The position numbers were made by a program, and so were the translations under genes. A DNA stretch of 64,000 nucleotides from Candidatus Omnitrophota bacterium (lineage in GTDB: Bacteria > Omnitrophota > Gorgyraeia > Gygaellales > Profunditerraquicolaceae), in contig JAQUOD010000003.1 in NCBI GenBank assembly GCA_028717245.1, forward strand, positions 85,636-149,635, read 5' to 3'. The first letter of the stretch is position 1, and each line of letters opens with the position of its first letter. This document shows, piece by piece, positions 18,460-30,616 of this stretch. The notes under the pieces are model-generated. The model saw only the letters and a list, made by a program, of their open reading frames with translations. It was not told where the DNA came from and ran no database searches.

Positions 18460-18578
18460 GAAAAAAGTATTAGAATAAATAAAGACATCCGCCTTTGGCG
18501 GATTAAATTCGCACTTATAACTTACTTATACTGCGTATCCGTAAGTTATGTGCTCATTTAAGAAAGGGGGAGTGGGGT

Positions 18579-19031
18579 ATGAAGAAGTTCGTATTTATCG
18601 TTTTAGCCTTAGTAGTGAGCATTTCTCTGTTTAGCTGCGCTAAAAAAGAGCAGTCCCTTACAGAAATGCAAGAACCGCTTTCCATAGAGGAATTAGGTAA
18701 CCAGGGTTATGTTTCAACGCCCGAAACAACTTCTAAAACCGCTACACCCGCAGTAACAATAGTTCCGGTTGAGACAAAAACAGAACTGCCCTTGCCGCCT
18801 ACAACCTTTAAGCCCACGGTTGAAGAGATTCAGACCGCGCTTAAGAATTCCGGTTACTATACGGGATTGGCGGATGGCAAAAAGGGACCCATGACCAAGA
18901 AGGCAATTGAGGATTTCCAGAGGGCAAATAATCTGGAAGTTGACGGTAAAGTCGGGCCTAAGACCTGGGCCTTATTGAGCCAGCATCTTAACCCCGCGTC
19001 CGTTTCGTCTACGTCCAAGAAAAAAAGATAA
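18579..19031 (+). CDS. Lipoprotein with C-terminal peptidoglycan-binding (PG_binding_1-like) domain
   Basis: lipobox LFSC; GKKGPMTKKAIEDFQRANNLEVDGKVGPKTWALL repeat typical of PG-binding domain. Confidence 0.65.
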   Translation: MKKFVFIVLALVVSISLFSCAKKEQSLTEMQEPLSIEELGNQGYVSTPETTSKTATPAVTIVPVETKTELPLPPTTFKPTVEEIQTALKNSGYYTGLADGKKGPMTKKAIEDFQRANNLEVDGKVGPKTWALLSQHLNPASVSSTSKKKR

Positions 19032-19147: not shown

Positions 19148-19477
19148 TTGGCTGCCGGCATATTGATAGATTCAGACCATGTTCTGGATTATTATGCCAA
19201 CCAGGGGATAACGCTAAAAATAAAAGATATATATGCCTGGTGTGTAGAGGAGAAATACCGCCTTATAGTCCTCATTTTTCATTCCCTAGAGTTAGCAATC
19301 CTATTATGGATTCTCATCTGGTTCCTAAGATTAGGCATATTCTGGATTGCCCTTGCCATTGGTATAACACAACATATGGTCTTTGACCTCCTTTTTAATC
19401 GAAAGCTAAAGATTTTCGCTTATTTTTTCACATTTAGGATTATCAAAGGGTTTAAAGGCGAAAAGATATTTAGATAA
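19148..19477 (+). CDS. Hypothetical small membrane protein
   Basis: ORF with 2-3 hydrophobic helices; TTG start, weak support. Confidence 0.3.
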   Translation: MAAGILIDSDHVLDYYANQGITLKIKDIYAWCVEEKYRLIVLIFHSLELAILLWILIWFLRLGIFWIALAIGITQHMVFDLLFNRKLKIFAYFFTFRIIKGFKGEKIFR

Positions 19478-19531
19478 TTTAGGCGTATCCTCACCTTGAA
19501 AAACAGGTAATTATAGTGTATACTTATATTA

Positions 19532-19714
19532 GCCGATAAAGGTAAACCCGCCGAAAGGCGGATAACGCAAAGCCACAGGCCTAAGTTGCTTTAGCCGGTC
19601 GTTTCTATCGCGAATTTTTCGGGTAGAATAGTGAGGCGGTGAGTAGCAATATGGTAGCTGGGTTGCCGTAAGTAAAGGTGTTGCAAGCTGCGTAAAGCGG
19701 GCACCTTTATCGGC
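19532..19714 (+). ncRNA. Candidate structured RNA or MITE-like element bounded by perfect 12-bp inverted repeats (gccgataaaggt ... acctttatcggc)
   Basis: 12-bp perfect terminal IR enclosing 159 nt with internal GNRA hairpin (ccgccgaaaggcgg); immediately followed by intrinsic terminator. Confidence 0.3.
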
Positions 19715-19730
19715 ACGTTTATCCTCAAAA

Positions 19731-19761
19731 ATCCCAACAAAAAGTTGGGATTTTTTATTTT
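19731..19761 (+). terminator. Rho-independent terminator (atcccaac / gttgggat stem, T-tract)
   Basis: 8-bp stem, loop aaaaa, followed by ttttttatttt. Confidence 0.65.
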
Positions 19762-19765
19762 AGAG

Positions 19766-19823
19766 TGCTATAATAAGTGAGTGCACAATTTATGGAACGT
19801 TAGTGAACATAAATTGTATGCAC
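19766..19823 (+). promoter_or_regulatory. Extended -10 promoter (TGcTATAAT) with downstream palindromic operator (gtgcacaatttatg N13 cataaattgtatgcac) upstream of beta-glucosidase gene
   Basis: TGn-TATAAT at 19766-19774; 14-bp arms inverted repeat 19781-19823. Confidence 0.45.
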
Positions 19824-19901
19824 GAACTTACCCCGCCCTTTTGGCAAGGCAAGCAATCGTAGCAGAATCTGCCTAAAAGAGCGGGGTTTCGCGGAGACAG
19901 A

Positions 19902-21122
19902 GTGATTCAATTCCCTAAAGATTTCTTCTGGGGTGCAGCCACATCTTCCTATCAGGTAGAAGGCAACAATATAAATAGCGACTGGTGGGAGTGGGAGAAG
20001 AGAGTCGGTTTAAGGGACGCCTCAGGCCAGGCCTGCCGCCACTATGAGTTTTATAAAGAGGATTTTGCCTTAGCAGCTAGCCTTAACCATAACTGCCACC
20101 GTTTATCCATAGAGTGGAGCCGCATTGAACCCCGGGAGGGGGAGTTTTCAGCATCAGAAATACAGCGCTATAAAGAAGTAATCCTTTCCTTAAAGGCCAA
20201 CAGCCTTGAACCTGTAGTTACCCTGCATCATTTTACTAACCCGCTTTGGTTTGCAAAATTAGGGGGTTGGCAGAATAAAAAGTCCGGCTTTTACTTTTTA
20301 CGTTACGTGGATAAGGTGGTGCGGGAGCTGGCTCCAGGAGTGCGCTATTGGGTAACTATAAACGAACCTCTGGTTTATGCCTATCATGCCTATATCCTGG
20401 GTGTCTGGCCGCCCCAGGAGAAATCCATTCTTAAAGCTAACCGCGTCCAGGAAAATTTGATCCGCGCCCACATAGAAACCTATCGTTTGATCCGGCGCAT
20501 TTACGAAGATAAATCCTTAAATTATCCTTTAATAAGTATCGCCAAGAATACGCAGGCGTTTGTTGCCTGCATCCCCACCCTAAGAAATAAGATCGCTGTT
20601 TATTTAAGAAACAGGTATTACAATCTTGATTTTGTAGAGAGGCTGCTACGTGCCAAGACGCTGGACTTTATAGGCATAAATTATTATAGCCGCAGCCTGG
20701 TGGAGACGCAAGGCTGGGGCATCAGGAACCTGACAATGGATGTCTGCCAGGGAGGCCATAGTTGCCTTAAGAAGAACTCTATGGGCTGGGATATTTATCC
20801 TGAAGGTTTATACAGCGTGCTCTTAGAATTTAAAAAATATAACCTGCCGCTGTTTATTTTAGAAAACGGCGTATGTACTGACGACGATAATTTAAGGTGG
20901 GATTTTATCTATGCGCATTTAAAAAATTTACATCTGGCGATACAGGCAGGGGCGCCTCTCTTAGGCTATATTTACTGGTCGCTGATAGACAATTTTGAAT
21001 GGGATAAAGGTTTCGCCCCGCGTTTCGGCCTTATTGAAATAGATTACCATACTTATAGGCGCACTGTCAGAGAAAGCGCAAAGAGACTTTCTTTAGTCTG
21101 TAAGACGGGCAGGTTGGAGTAA
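19902..21122 (+). CDS. Glycoside hydrolase family 1 beta-glucosidase
   Basis: FPKDFFWGAATSSYQVEG N-terminal GH1 signature, TINEP and ENG catalytic Glu motifs; GTG start. Confidence 0.9.
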   Translation: MIQFPKDFFWGAATSSYQVEGNNINSDWWEWEKRVGLRDASGQACRHYEFYKEDFALAASLNHNCHRLSIEWSRIEPREGEFSASEIQRYKEVILSLKANSLEPVVTLHHFTNPLWFAKLGGWQNKKSGFYFLRYVDKVVRELAPGVRYWVTINEPLVYAYHAYILGVWPPQEKSILKANRVQENLIRAHIETYRLIRRIYEDKSLNYPLISIAKNTQAFVACIPTLRNKIAVYLRNRYYNLDFVERLLRAKTLDFIGINYYSRSLVETQGWGIRNLTMDVCQGGHSCLKKNSMGWDIYPEGLYSVLLEFKKYNLPLFILENGVCTDDDNLRWDFIYAHLKNLHLAIQAGAPLLGYIYWSLIDNFEWDKGFAPRFGLIEIDYHTYRRTVRESAKRLSLVCKTGRLE

Positions 21123-21124
21123 AA

Positions 21125-23134
21125 ATGGAGACCGTAAATAAAGACTACATCTTCCAGGAGATTCCTTTATTTTTAGGCTTATCCCGAATAGAATTAGATA
21201 TTATTAAGGAAAAAAGCAGTTTCGTAGAATACAGGAAGGGAGAGCTTATTTATAAAGAGGGTTCGCCTCCGGATGCCTTTTATTGCATTATTCTAGGCAG
21301 GGTAGTCATCTATACCCAGGACACCCAGGGCAACGAAACAGCCCTGGAGTATCTGCACCGCGGAAAATATTTCGGGATTATCTCGCTTTTGACAGGCGAG
21401 CCCCATTCCGTTACTGCCAGGGCCATAAATGACAGCCTGCTTCTGGTGATTAAGAAAGAAGACTTCGATTTTGTTTTGAAGAAGATCCCGCGCCTGGCTA
21501 TTGATTTAAGCCAGACCTTATCCCGCAGGCTCAAACGCAAGGACATCCACCAGAAGACGGTTTTTGAAAGCGCTATTATTGCCGTATTCAGCTCTTATTC
21601 GCAGGCCGGTAAGACTGTATATGCGCTGAATCTGGCTTTAAGCCTTCAAAAGGAAACGCATAAGTCTGCGGCCATATTGGATATATGCCTTAAGGATAAT
21701 ACCCACAGCCTGCCCGCAAAATTAGAAATTAATACCAACTATCCTGTTTTTAGTCTCTCTGGCTCTACGGCAGATGCCCCTGATAAGATAAAAGATTTCG
21801 TTTTACATAATAACTTCGGCATGGATTTAATCTGTTTTTCTTACGAACAGGAAGATGCCTCTTGCGTGAAAAACCTGATCGCTGTTTTAACCCTTTTAGT
21901 GAACGATTATCACTACCTGATTTTAGACTTACCTTCGGCCATGGACCGCGCGGTCTTTGATATGCTGCATCAGTCAGACGTGATTAATATCCTTACCAGC
22001 CCTGAGCCTGTGGATTTAAAGAGGACGCGCCATTTGATAGAAAGGCTTAAAGCAGACTTTCATTTCCCCGAGAAAAAGATAAAAGTCATCATTAATGAAT
22101 ATAAACTCTCCAGGCTTACGCATGAAGGGCAAAGAGAACTTTTGGGTCAGCCGATATTCGCTACCCTGCCTAAGATAGAATTTTCCAGCACTGACAGGCT
22201 GGTATTGACGGGCCCGGATAGCGAATACGCCAAAGCTGTAAAAAGAATCGCGCGCCAGATGGGGGATTGTTTGGTAGGCCTGGCATTAGGCGTGGGCTTT
22301 GCTTATGGTTTTTGCCATATCGGGGTCTTGAAGGTAATTGAGGAGGAGAAGATACCCGTAGATGCGATCGCCGGCTCCAGTATCGGCGCGGTTATCGCTG
22401 CCCTTTGGGCGACAGGTAAGTCATCTGGCGAGATACTCCAGATAACCAAAGAATTCAAAGAGCCCAAATACATCTGGAGTTTTATAGACCTGACCCTGCC
22501 GCTAATGGGCTTTATTAAAGGCAATAAACTCTATAATTTCCTGAAGAAACACTTAGGAAATAAGACTTTTTATGATGTCAAGCTGCCATTGATGATTATC
22601 GCCAGCGATGTAAAAAAGAAAGAATCCCGGATTATAGATAAAGGTTTGCTGATAGACGCGATTATGGCCAGCTGTGCCATGCCCGGCGTATTCAAGCCCT
22701 TTAAATTTAAAGAGGAAATATTGTTTGACGGAGGAGTGATCAATCCTTTGCCTACGGAGGCATTATTTAAAACAGGCATGAAAAAGATTATTGCCGTGAA
22801 TGTCACGCCCTCTAAAGAGGATATACTCAGCCAATACGAAAAAGTAAAGGAAGCCATTGATATAAAGGAGATAAAAAAGAAGAAGTGGTTCGGTTTAGGC
22901 AGCTATATTAGGGATAAGTTCAAAGATAATATAGTCGGCATCATATTCAGCAGTATCGAGATGCTGCAGTCGGAAGTGGCGCAAAAAGAGGCGCAGCTGG
23001 CGGATATCGTGCTTCATCCGGATACCGGCGGCCTGCATTGGCTACAACTGCATAAGTCAGAAGATTTTGCCAAAAGAGGAGAGGATGAAACGCGTAAGAA
23101 CCTAGATAAAATCTGGCAGGTCATTAATGAATAA
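21125..23134 (+). CDS. Tri-domain protein: cyclic-nucleotide-binding domain + degenerate ParA/MinD-like domain + patatin-like phospholipase
   Basis: cNMP-binding pattern (FQEIPLF...GELIYKEG...ITGEPHSVTARA); SQAGKT and YHYLILDLPS ParA-like motifs; patatin GxGxxG (GVGFAYG) and GSSIG serine motif, DGG. Confidence 0.8.
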   Translation: METVNKDYIFQEIPLFLGLSRIELDIIKEKSSFVEYRKGELIYKEGSPPDAFYCIILGRVVIYTQDTQGNETALEYLHRGKYFGIISLLTGEPHSVTARAINDSLLLVIKKEDFDFVLKKIPRLAIDLSQTLSRRLKRKDIHQKTVFESAIIAVFSSYSQAGKTVYALNLALSLQKETHKSAAILDICLKDNTHSLPAKLEINTNYPVFSLSGSTADAPDKIKDFVLHNNFGMDLICFSYEQEDASCVKNLIAVLTLLVNDYHYLILDLPSAMDRAVFDMLHQSDVINILTSPEPVDLKRTRHLIERLKADFHFPEKKIKVIINEYKLSRLTHEGQRELLGQPIFATLPKIEFSSTDRLVLTGPDSEYAKAVKRIARQMGDCLVGLALGVGFAYGFCHIGVLKVIEEEKIPVDAIAGSSIGAVIAALWATGKSSGEILQITKEFKEPKYIWSFIDLTLPLMGFIKGNKLYNFLKKHLGNKTFYDVKLPLMIIASDVKKKESRIIDKGLLIDAIMASCAMPGVFKPFKFKEEILFDGGVINPLPTEALFKTGMKKIIAVNVTPSKEDILSQYEKVKEAIDIKEIKKKKWFGLGSYIRDKFKDNIVGIIFSSIEMLQSEVAQKEAQLADIVLHPDTGGLHWLQLHKSEDFAKRGEDETRKNLDKIWQVINE

Positions 23135-28394: not shown

Positions 28395-28466
28395 GCCGAG
28401 GTAGCTCAGTGGTAGAGCGCGGCCCTGAAAAGGCCGGCGTGGGGGGTCCGATTCCCTCCCTCGGCA
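28395..28466 (+). tRNA. tRNA-Phe (anticodon GAA)
   Basis: Acceptor gccgagg/cctcggc, D-arm tagctcagtggtagagc, anticodon stem cggcc/ggccg with loop ctGAAaa, T-arm ggggg-tccgatt-ccctc; integrase immediately downstream. Confidence 0.75.
28453..28466 (+). repeat. attL core: 14-bp direct repeat TCCCTCCCTCGGCA (3' end of tRNA-Phe)
   Basis: identical 14-mer recurs at 39339-39352. Confidence 0.65.
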
Positions 28467-30425: not shown

Positions 30426-30616
30426 ATAAAGCTTGCAAATCTAAGATAAATGTTGTATGCTTATATCAGTTGAAGATTGCGGTGTAGGTTATCTGTTGTT
30501 TCTACTGGCGGGAATGACAGTCAAGCCTTGCCGCATAACACCAGCCTAAAAATACCAACCAAAAGTTGGTATTTTTTGTTTTATAGAGAGAAAAACAGTT
30601 CAGTTATTAAAAATTA

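Follow-up and report, generated by a model that had tools for sequence, protein, structure and literature searches.

Three described systems come closest to the RNA considered here, which precedes a GH1 β-glucosidase gene in a genome of Candidatus Omnitrophota and belongs, by its sequence, to the riboswitches that sense c-di-GMP (cyclic diguanosine monophosphate). In Vc2, the c-di-GMP-I aptamer of Vibrio cholerae (RF01051 type in Rfam), the ligand is contacted by residues G20, A47 and C92, to which the closing pair G14-C93 is added (PMC5049679, Table 1). Bc1 of Bacillus thuringiensis (Bacillus cereus group), another c-di-GMP-I riboswitch, is followed by two terminators lying 28 bp apart, the first of which (T1) unfolds with c-di-GMP in selective 2'-hydroxyl acylation analyzed by primer extension (SHAPE), whereas the second (T2) is retained and, in vivo, masks the response (PMC11218506). 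The merRNA of Bdellovibrio bacteriovorus is a terminated small RNA built on a c-di-GMP riboswitch and has been proposed to store c-di-GMP (PMC3627812). With these systems we compare positions 19496-19901 of a 64-kb stretch of DNA, hereafter the window (always the whole stretch analyzed), the sequence of which can be read here as two tandem transcription units. The first, of roughly 230 nt (~19531-19761), runs from a promoter P1 through the riboswitch to a terminator T2; the second is the GH1 mRNA made from a promoter P2, with a leader of ~120 nt that contains two hairpins, HP1 and HP2, and a Shine-Dalgarno (SD) segment.

The main object of this locus is a known RNA class, the c-di-GMP-I riboswitch, in a new host and gene context; unusual is only its wiring to the GH1 gene, in a conserved layout of two terminators and a promoter. 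Our preferred reading, to which we assign a probability of about 55%, is that of an ON-type riboswitch in which transcription from P1, reading through a first terminator T1 and then T2, adds to the P2-driven expression of an operon of GH1 and a patatin-like gene. For the window alone this is mostly an ordinary gain in annotation, by which an anonymous repeat receives a concrete identity as a c-di-GMP sensor.

The aptamer and its occurrence upstream of GH1

The following elements define the 5' part of the first unit:

19496..19524, + strand: promoter P1, sigma-70-type, TTGAAA-17-TATACT, with 10/12 matches to the consensus
19531..19670, + strand: c-di-GMP-I (GEMM-I) riboswitch aptamer, Rfam RF01051
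19532..19543, + strand: segment 1, the 5' arm of a 12-bp inverted repeat, forming the RNA 5' end and holding the 5' strand of the aptamer P1 helix and the G20 equivalent

A scan against Rfam matched RF01051 at 19531-19670 over the full model (positions 1-87 of 87), with 61.4 bits, the gathering score being 35, and E = 3e-11. A GAAA tetraloop (19553-19556) caps the hairpin CCCGCC-GAAA-GGCGG at 19547-19561, while the 11-nt receptor is formed by CCUAAG (19580-19585) and UAUGG (19650-19654). In the RF01051 alignment, and following Vc2 numbering, G19541 corresponds to G20, A19569 to A47 and C19666 to C92; the short P1 helix can form the pairs G19535-C19667 (equivalent to G14-C93) and C19534-G19668. 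The window RNA is, on these grounds, a c-di-GMP-I (GEMM-I) riboswitch with the standard c-di-GMP pocket, for which ligand binding is predicted. It has in common with Vc2 the two-hairpin aptamer, the GNRA tetraloop docking into an 11-nt receptor, the equivalents of G20, A47 and C92 and a short P1 helix closed by a G-C pair. It differs from Vc2 in a 54-nt insertion that extends the tip of the receptor (second) hairpin, in a native P1 helix of only ~2 pairs, in a downstream segment that is complementary to both strands of this helix, and in its host phylum and associated genes (GH1 and patatin-like).

In the GEMM-Ib variant, which senses cyclic GMP-AMP, G20 is changed to A. Both this specificity (A20) and that of the c-di-GMP-I-GGC variant (RF03167, with G47) could be excluded, as the window sequence has G20 and A47. 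Some orthologues, for example that of locus L015, score best with RF03167 yet read CGCAAAG, that is, A at position 47; the RF03167 consensus likewise draws a P1 helix of 2-3 pairs with the same CG/CG nucleotides. For c-di-GMP riboswitches in Omnitrophica, a search of the literature gave no result.

The near-consensus promoter P1 had been overlooked by an earlier reading of the locus made from the letters alone (the sequence-only reading). Transcription from it would start at ~19531, coinciding with the 5' end of the aptamer, and a TTGNNN-17-TANNNT element lies 4-9 nt before GCCGA in 55/59 related units. The RNA from 19531 to 19765 folds at z = -6.1 with respect to dinucleotide shuffles. The sequence-only reading, which had proposed a terminated noncoding transcript of ~230 nt, is supported in that the unit is structured, noncoding and extends from promoter to terminator; the only open reading frame (ORF) between the 12-bp repeat and the terminator is one of 49 codons on the minus strand.

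The distribution of this unit was followed in relatives by two routes. Retrieval anchored on GH1 gave 80 genomic loci (loci from either route are designated L plus a number). Among those in which GH1 has at least 50% identity, Rfam places the riboswitch immediately before GH1, in the same orientation, in 15 loci, to which inspection of motifs adds L002 and L039; it precedes GH1 or the adjoining patatin-like gene in 17 of the ~46 GH1-anchored loci for which the upstream sequence is long enough. From metagenomes, the 5' motif GCCGATAAAGGYAAACC retrieved 120 stretches, roughly 40 of which contain the same kind of unit, the remainder being mostly chance matches inside genes. The riboswitch is found upstream of GH1 in ~25 metagenome contigs too. 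In those metagenome units that include sequence further downstream, GH1 most often comes next, otherwise the gene for the cyclic nucleotide monophosphate (cNMP)-binding/ParA-like/patatin protein; in a more distant group of units the place is taken by genes for a YkgJ-like protein, for a Zn-ribbon protein of 101 aa or for others. This synteny on the same strand, before GH1 or the patatin-like gene, overturns the earlier description of the element as a noncoding RNA unrelated to its neighbour. It also links second-messenger signalling to a conserved neighbourhood of uncultured, ultra-small Omnitrophota, which comprises a peptidoglycan (PG)-binding lipoprotein, the GH1 glycosidase and the cNMP-binding patatin-like phospholipase. 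In the window the two genes downstream are the following:

19893..21122, + strand: SD segment GGAG (19893-19896) and GH1 β-glucosidase gene (Pfam), with a GTG start at 19902 as previously described
21125..23134, + strand: gene for the cNMP-binding/ParA-like/patatin protein (Pfam), next after GH1

In four loci in which GH1 is absent (L108, L116, L199 and L132), the riboswitch with its T2/P2 module stands directly before the homologue of the gene at 21125-23134, which suggests that the patatin-like gene is part of the regulated unit.

The inverted repeat and the proposed terminator T1

The sequence-only reading had singled out a perfect 12-bp inverted repeat, its arms 159 nt apart and enclosing a GNRA hairpin, as either a structured RNA or an insertion resembling a miniature inverted-repeat transposable element (MITE). 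Repeat (GCCGATAAAGGT/ACCTTTATCGGC, 19532-19543 and 19703-19714) and hairpin are indeed found at these sites, and all the other features then described are present as well, with coordinates that are off by at most 4 nt. By our own estimate, roughly 0.01 perfect 12-mer inverted repeats would be expected by chance within ~500 nt; what decides against chance is conservation, since repeat, terminator and promoter are all found again in orthologous loci, dozens in number. The structured-RNA interpretation stands, given the Rfam match and the conservation, even if the repeat is a single copy in the window. That such a repeat bounds a 183-bp non-coding segment is what a MITE would also display, but the 64 kb contain a single copy (with up to two mismatches, only the two arms themselves match), the flanks TATTA and ACGTT show no target-site duplication, the interior is an Rfam riboswitch with the 5' arm forming part of the aptamer core, and in many genomes the same arms flank orthologous riboswitches with large interior insertions. 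A mobile origin of the segment is, consequently, hardly credible. A probable real MITE, judged by its sequence, was encountered elsewhere: in L011 (~2500-2985), T2 is separated from the -10 element of GH1 by an insertion of ~450 nt that carries long inverted repeats at its ends (CCCACAAAATAT.../...ATATTTTGTGGG-like).

The 3' arm of the repeat belongs to a second structure, the elements of which are listed here:

19665..19714, + strand: T1 hairpin, the putative expression platform, predicted at -20.7 kcal/mol
19703..19714, + strand: segment 3, which is the repeat's 3' arm, a shared 3' strand able to pair with segment 1 in an anti-aptamer helix or with the aptamer tail plus segment 2
19715..19726, + strand: linker ACGTTTATCCTC, 9/12 identical to segment 3 (ACCTTTATCGGC), occupying the place of the U-run that follows T1 in relatives

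In T1, the tail GCCG of the aptamer (19665-19668, containing the equivalents of C92, C93 and G94) and the purine-rich segment 2 (19672-19681, UAAAGGUG in the window) pair with segment 3 (19701-19714 in this helix). The order of the elements is kept across units: promoter P1, the RNA 5' end GCCGAUAAAGG corresponding to segment 1, the aptamer with variable insertions, the tail GCCGAA, segment 2, a variable loop and finally CCUUUAUCGGC, corresponding to segment 3. A local T1 hairpin is obtained in 54/59 folded units (60 in all, one of which could not be anchored), and at least 6 U occur in the 9 nt directly after segment 3 in 38/58. Hence the pairing of tail and segment 2 with segment 3, together with the U-run, would constitute the riboswitch's own terminator. 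The alternative pairing of segment 1 with segment 3 is predicted at -15 to -23 kcal/mol across units. A small ORF behind segment 2, which is SD-like, was also considered and rejected, start codons and spacing being inconsistent between loci.

In minimum free energy (MFE) folds, the inner helix of T1 covaries, with GC, CG, UA, AU or UG just 5' of CCUUU in different units; facing the U's of segment 3, which are fixed, segment 2 has either A or G. Segment 3 itself is invariable and remains complementary to the invariant segment 1; it would be fixed because it must also match this aptamer strand. In the GH1-anchored set, which is unbiased in this respect, the changes that do occur in segment 1 or 3 (L004, L030, L031 and L037) are wobble-compatible. 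Since the tail holds the equivalents of C92 and C93, and segment 1 those of G14 and G20, either pairing of segment 3 destroys the ligand pocket.

Folding of the window RNA gives -91.1 kcal/mol without constraint, with segments 1 and 3 paired, -83.5 kcal/mol when segment 1 is kept single (local T1) and -77.9 kcal/mol when both segment 1 and the tail are kept single. The gap of ~13 kcal/mol is comparable in order to the binding energy of c-di-GMP, as judged from the affinity of Vc2; in the folding model it also implies kinetic control.

From these elements we propose the following sequence of events. In the absence of ligand, segment 3 would pair either locally, forming T1, or over the long range with segment 1, both pairings dismantling the pocket; in most relatives, the U-run right after segment 3 would then cause intrinsic termination. 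With c-di-GMP bound, both GCCG strands would be held in the pocket and the short P1 helix, so that only the inner pairing of segments 2 and 3 could form; T1 would fail and the device would act as an ON-type terminator riboswitch.

In the window, this control may have weakened. The sequence after T1, ACGUUUAUC, has only 4 U in 9, and the linker in its place looks like a partial tandem duplication of the switch strand, segment 3. The decayed U-run suggests weak or no control at T1 here. Decay might even have gone further, the window riboswitch being a non-functional copy, with eroded U-run and the partial duplicate of segment 3 in place, that regulates nothing in its genome, where GH1 has a leader with its own SD. 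In keeping with this, U is scarcer after segment 3 than in most relatives, the linker matches segment 3 at 9/12 positions, and the riboswitch has been lost completely in L001, the GH1 of which is the closest relative (76% identity). However, the aptamer scores well above threshold with all its pocket residues intact, promoter P1 is near consensus, and segments 1 and 3 pair perfectly over 12 pairs, one more than in most relatives, a combination not expected under neutral decay. We regard complete loss of function, therefore, as quite improbable.

The terminator T2, the promoter P2 and the possible control of GH1

Immediately after the linker follow a second terminator and the promoter of GH1:

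19727..19761, + strand: T2, strong intrinsic terminator, AAAAAUCCCAAC-AAAAA-GUUGGGAUUUUU followed by a U-run
19745..19774, + strand: promoter P2, extended -10 sigma-70 type, TTGGGA-18-TGcTATAAT, with TGCTATAAT at 19766-19774 and TTGGGA 18 nt upstream

Both had been recognized in the sequence-only reading, as a canonical terminator (given as 19731-19761) and an extended -10 element, and the latter does constitute a separate promoter which, with a structured leader, comes after the riboswitch unit. T2 has a 12-bp stem (19727-19738/19744-19755), followed by TTTTTTATTTT, with the T-run reaching to 19761; by its sequence it is an intrinsic terminator, a G+C-containing hairpin with a direct U-run, for which termination is predicted. 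Its 3' arm contains the -35 element of P2, TTGGGA, so that terminator and promoter form a fused T2/P2 module. From P2, transcription would start at ~19780-19781.

Comparison of relatives shows what is conserved in this module. The arms of T2 (AAUCCCAAC-loop-GUUGGGAUU) covary, being GUCCCAAC/GUUGGGAC in L009, ACCCCAAC/GUUGGGGU in L100 and AUCCCAAU/AUUGGGAU in L016 and L110. Its loop tolerates insertions of 42-103 nt (L037, L040, L087, L093, L116 and L165), which indicates that T2 acts as an RNA hairpin and not as a protein site. In four loci (L045, L167, L178 and L191) the T2 sequence is replaced by a different terminator, still fused to the -10; where insertions part T2 from the -10 (L011 and L035), the latter stays beside GH1, with a new -35 at 17 bp in L035. 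Across the units, a second terminator is present within 260 nt in 54/58, and 31 have an extended -10 situated 0-25 nt past the end of its U-run. The module also occurs upstream of GH1 without any riboswitch, after the PG_binding_1 gene, in L013, L014, L016, L018 and L023 as well as in L024, L028, L036 and L058. From its sequence context, then, T2 is not the platform of the riboswitch but an insulating terminator incorporated in the promoter of the gene that follows.

In most orthologous loci TGnTATAAT is retained ahead of GH1, its usual distance from the ATG being 5-11 nt and an SD being absent, which implies a leaderless GH1 mRNA in most of them (examples of this layout among loci L003-L058 are L004, 2985-3003, and L013, 2984-3003). 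Judged against these loci, the leader with SD of the window is a derived state shared with few relatives. A related arrangement was observed before the conserved gene for the 101-aa Zn-ribbon protein in L086, L111 and L176, where c-di-GMP-I units with the same 5' sequence, a T1 with strong U-run and a second terminator lie ~100-330 nt upstream of the gene; in L086 and L176 its ATG follows TGTTATAAT by 9-10 nt, and the gene appears to be one more leaderless target of this kind of riboswitch.

T2 does not appear to be under the control of the aptamer. It remains intact in all three constrained folds, and a search by eye and by constrained folding for an antiterminator gave at best 4-5 pairs with the aptamer strand CUGGGUU, so that this candidate was rejected. 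The idea that T2 is a common repeat was likewise rejected, TCCCRRC occurring in the window at chance frequency, with T2 and one look-alike at 30548 as its only instances of this kind. The look-alike (30548-30576, AAAAATACCAAC-CAAAA-GTTGGTATTTTT) is a terminator of T2-like design with two bases different in each arm; no extended -10 or gene start follows it closely.

In the recurrent layout, a promoter and an aptamer are followed by a regulated terminator and by a constitutive one, the latter fused to the promoter of the next, mostly leaderless, gene; this layout echoes the unexplained behaviour of Bc1. The locus and Bc1 have in common a single aptamer and, after it, a pair of intrinsic terminators separated by a few tens of nt, with the upstream terminator overlapping the switching region and the downstream one structurally independent of the ligand (in the window, by constrained folds). 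In contrast to Bc1, the T2 of the window is fused to an independent extended -10 promoter and its module also exists without riboswitch; the T2 of Bc1 affects the exposure of the ribosome-binding site too, a link that is not seen in the window. Dozens of natural variants are thereby available to ask why riboswitches carry a second, seemingly defeating terminator.

According to our preferred reading, polymerases that pass T1 would reach T2 ~12 nt later, and no alternative fold would disrupt it. c-di-GMP would then increase the proportion, small in itself, of P1 transcripts getting past T1 and T2 alike, with T2 damping or masking the response as in the report on Bc1, while P2 would make the leaderless GH1 mRNA in most Omnitrophota.

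Several considerations weigh against this reading. Some concern the switch itself: the U-run after T1 is weak in the window; the covariation counts for the inner helix derive from MFE folds and are biased in favour of pairing; segment 1 is invariant by construction in the metagenome units, its sequence having served to retrieve them; and the assignment as ON rather than OFF rests on overlap logic. Segment 3 could, moreover, give a longer P1 helix in the bound state (GCCGA/UCGGC), with segments 2 and 3 forming an extra helix, in which case T1 would form in both states and be constitutive. Other considerations concern the output. T2 is strong and perfectly conserved, so little P1 transcription may reach GH1, and this perfect retention makes simple read-through less likely to be the selected output; an effect in cis on GH1 could be nil or come about by another route. 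In most relatives, furthermore, the SD-less ATG stands 5-11 nt after the -10, and a read-through mRNA might not be translated there.

The same strength of T2 brings in a different possibility, which we consider unlikely but place next after read-through: that the unit from P1 to T2 is an independent, always terminated small RNA of ~190-230 nt exerting no control on GH1. It could be a buffer or sponge for c-di-GMP, or a regulatory RNA in which segment 2 is exposed without ligand and sequestered with it. Such an RNA would have its own near-consensus promoter and two terminators, of which T2 survives every constrained fold; the downstream gene has an independent promoter in most units; and in L011, where ~450 nt separate the unit from GH1, T2 has stayed with the riboswitch. 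There is a precedent in the merRNA of Bdellovibrio, likewise a c-di-GMP-I aptamer in a discrete transcript that was proposed to be an RNA in its own right (PMC3627812). However, merRNA has 445 nt, lacks a conserved downstream ORF and is found only in Bdellovibrio, whereas the Omnitrophota units always lie just upstream of a same-strand gene, within ~50-300 nt of its start. The presence of several downstream families (GH1, patatin-like, 101-aa Zn-ribbon, YkgJ-like and others) fits a regulon controlled in cis, and the linker and segment 2 are not conserved in sequence, unlike the seed of a trans-acting RNA.

The fusion of T2 with P2 leads to another proposal, to which we give somewhat less credence than to a stand-alone RNA. 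c-di-GMP would gate P2, by deciding whether polymerases from P1 stop at T1 or run on to T2, inside P2; this could result in occlusion of P2 or, conversely, in a hand-off of polymerase to P2 for re-initiation. The geometry is suggestive, since the 3' arm of T2 supplies the -35 of P2, the release point of T2 lies inside the P2 spacer and T1 is only 10-30 nt upstream; the spacing of U-run and TGnTATAAT recurs in the 31 units mentioned above, and the fusion is kept even where the T2 sequence has been replaced. Gating is attractive because 5-11 nt separate the -10 from the start of GH1 and from that of two or more other downstream genes, and a classical riboswitch of the 5' untranslated region (UTR) cannot act on such leaderless targets. 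An Omnitrophota riboswitch that regulates mRNAs without 5' UTR, by gating at T1 versus a promoter-embedded terminator, is nonetheless a doubtful proposition. It is entirely inferential, our literature search found no precedent, the module exists without riboswitch and may just insulate P2 from upstream transcription, and in the window the leader of GH1 with its SD, together with a T1 lacking a good U-run, would make for a weak gate. If true, promoter gating would be a new mode of riboswitch action at the level of transcription units. Our order of preference remains classical read-through, then the stand-alone RNA, then gating of P2 and then decay.

The structured leader of GH1 and the surrounding genes

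The leader that follows P2 in the window contains an element that is also found upstream of a neighbouring gene:

19775..19829, + strand: HP1, conserved 5'-terminal hairpin of the GH1 leader, main stem 19781-19794/19808-19823 with a UA bulge
19830..19887, + strand: HP2, G+C-rich hairpin ACCCCGCCCUUUU...AAAAGAGCGGGGU, arms 19830-19842/19875-19887
18498..18559, - strand: second, inverted copy of HP1

The region 19776-19910 folds at z = -5.1 with respect to dinucleotide shuffles. HP1 has 10 perfect pairs (19785-19794/19808-19817) and, with its 2-nt bulge, the 14 pairs over 19781-19823 that the sequence-only reading had described as a palindromic operator; HP2, which it had placed at 19826-19885, is offset by 2-4 nt. 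A structured leader right after TATAAT replaces the leaderless layout in the window, L001, L006, L088, L100 and L200. The corresponding alignment of six sequences (A1) contains 18 pairs, with 99.1% pairing across the sequences, and 7 pairs are changed on both sides; on four of five measures 0/500 shuffles reach the observed value, nor do slid registers, whereas on the fifth (further pair types) 463/500 shuffles reach it. The loop varies by >10 nt in length (11 gap columns in A1), the asymmetric UA bulge is conserved and there is one U-G pair. Compensatory double changes and variable loop speak against the operator, and fit an RNA hairpin rather than a site for a protein. HP2 is conserved in position and variable in length among relatives.

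A covariance model of HP1 (R1) finds further copies on either strand. That at 18498-18559 matches with 50.9 bits and E = 3.5e-8; read on the plus strand, it is a hairpin ending in GUGCUCAUUU, after which the SD and the ATG (18579) of the PG_binding_1 gene follow immediately, and beside it lies an HP2-like hairpin (18487-18503). A terminator-like hairpin was recorded at this place. The full element, consisting of HP1, HP2 and an inverted HP1 with the ends AAGUGAG...CUCAUUU, abuts an AAGGAGG Shine-Dalgarno in L001, L011, L015, L037, L048, L116 and L180; the same element stands before the PG_binding_1 gene in L001, L035 and L037. It matches no Rfam family, and the G-U content of the HP1 copies indicates no preferred strand, there being too few G-U pairs. 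The element may be a leader with a regulatory role or else a small palindromic repeat that comes to lie in 5' UTRs; as a repeated leader hairpin it is a candidate new RNA motif, and HP1-HP2-HP1' may represent an undescribed family of cis-regulatory RNA.

Stem-loops at the 5' end of bacterial mRNAs, such as the 5' hairpin of ompA, stabilise and protect the transcript. If P2 starts at ~19781, the main stem of HP1 would begin with the first nucleotide of the mRNA and resemble such hairpins. HP1 differs from them in being a repeated, sequence-conserved element that is also found before the SD of other genes, which points to a specific regulator or to mobility in its origin more than to a stabiliser of generic kind.

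The GH1 protein has 100% identity with a protein of a Candidatus Omnitrophica metagenome-assembled genome; a search for contigs encoding it gave no match. Neither of two simple rules for translation initiation holds in the window, namely that all genes are leaderless or that an SD is obligatory: SD-like motifs precede ~17/39 long ORFs in a crude count, and a scan for an extended -10 with ATG within 3-14 nt found no other real gene so preceded. Besides the riboswitch, the sole Rfam match in the window is a tRNA-Phe at 28395; a hit to "AgrB" on the minus strand (19725-19792, 26.8 bits with a gathering score of 40) is just the terminator hairpin and was rejected.

Upstream of the riboswitch, the window has the PG_binding_1 lipoprotein gene (+ strand, ATG at 18579; Pfam) and a small membrane-protein ORF (19148-19477) without Pfam match. 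In L020 and L087 a homologous ORF lies between the riboswitch module and GH1, and because of this change of place the gene order around the module appears fluid. In L005 and L046 the PG_binding_1 gene is ~15 nt from GH1, with an SD-like GGAAAG in L005 and without the T2/P2 module, so that the two genes would form an operon there. In L049, upstream of a distant GH1 homologue, a group I intron match (RF00028, 86.6 bits, 680-1016) is flanked, within 522-1644, by two tRNA matches (522-594 and 1574-1644).

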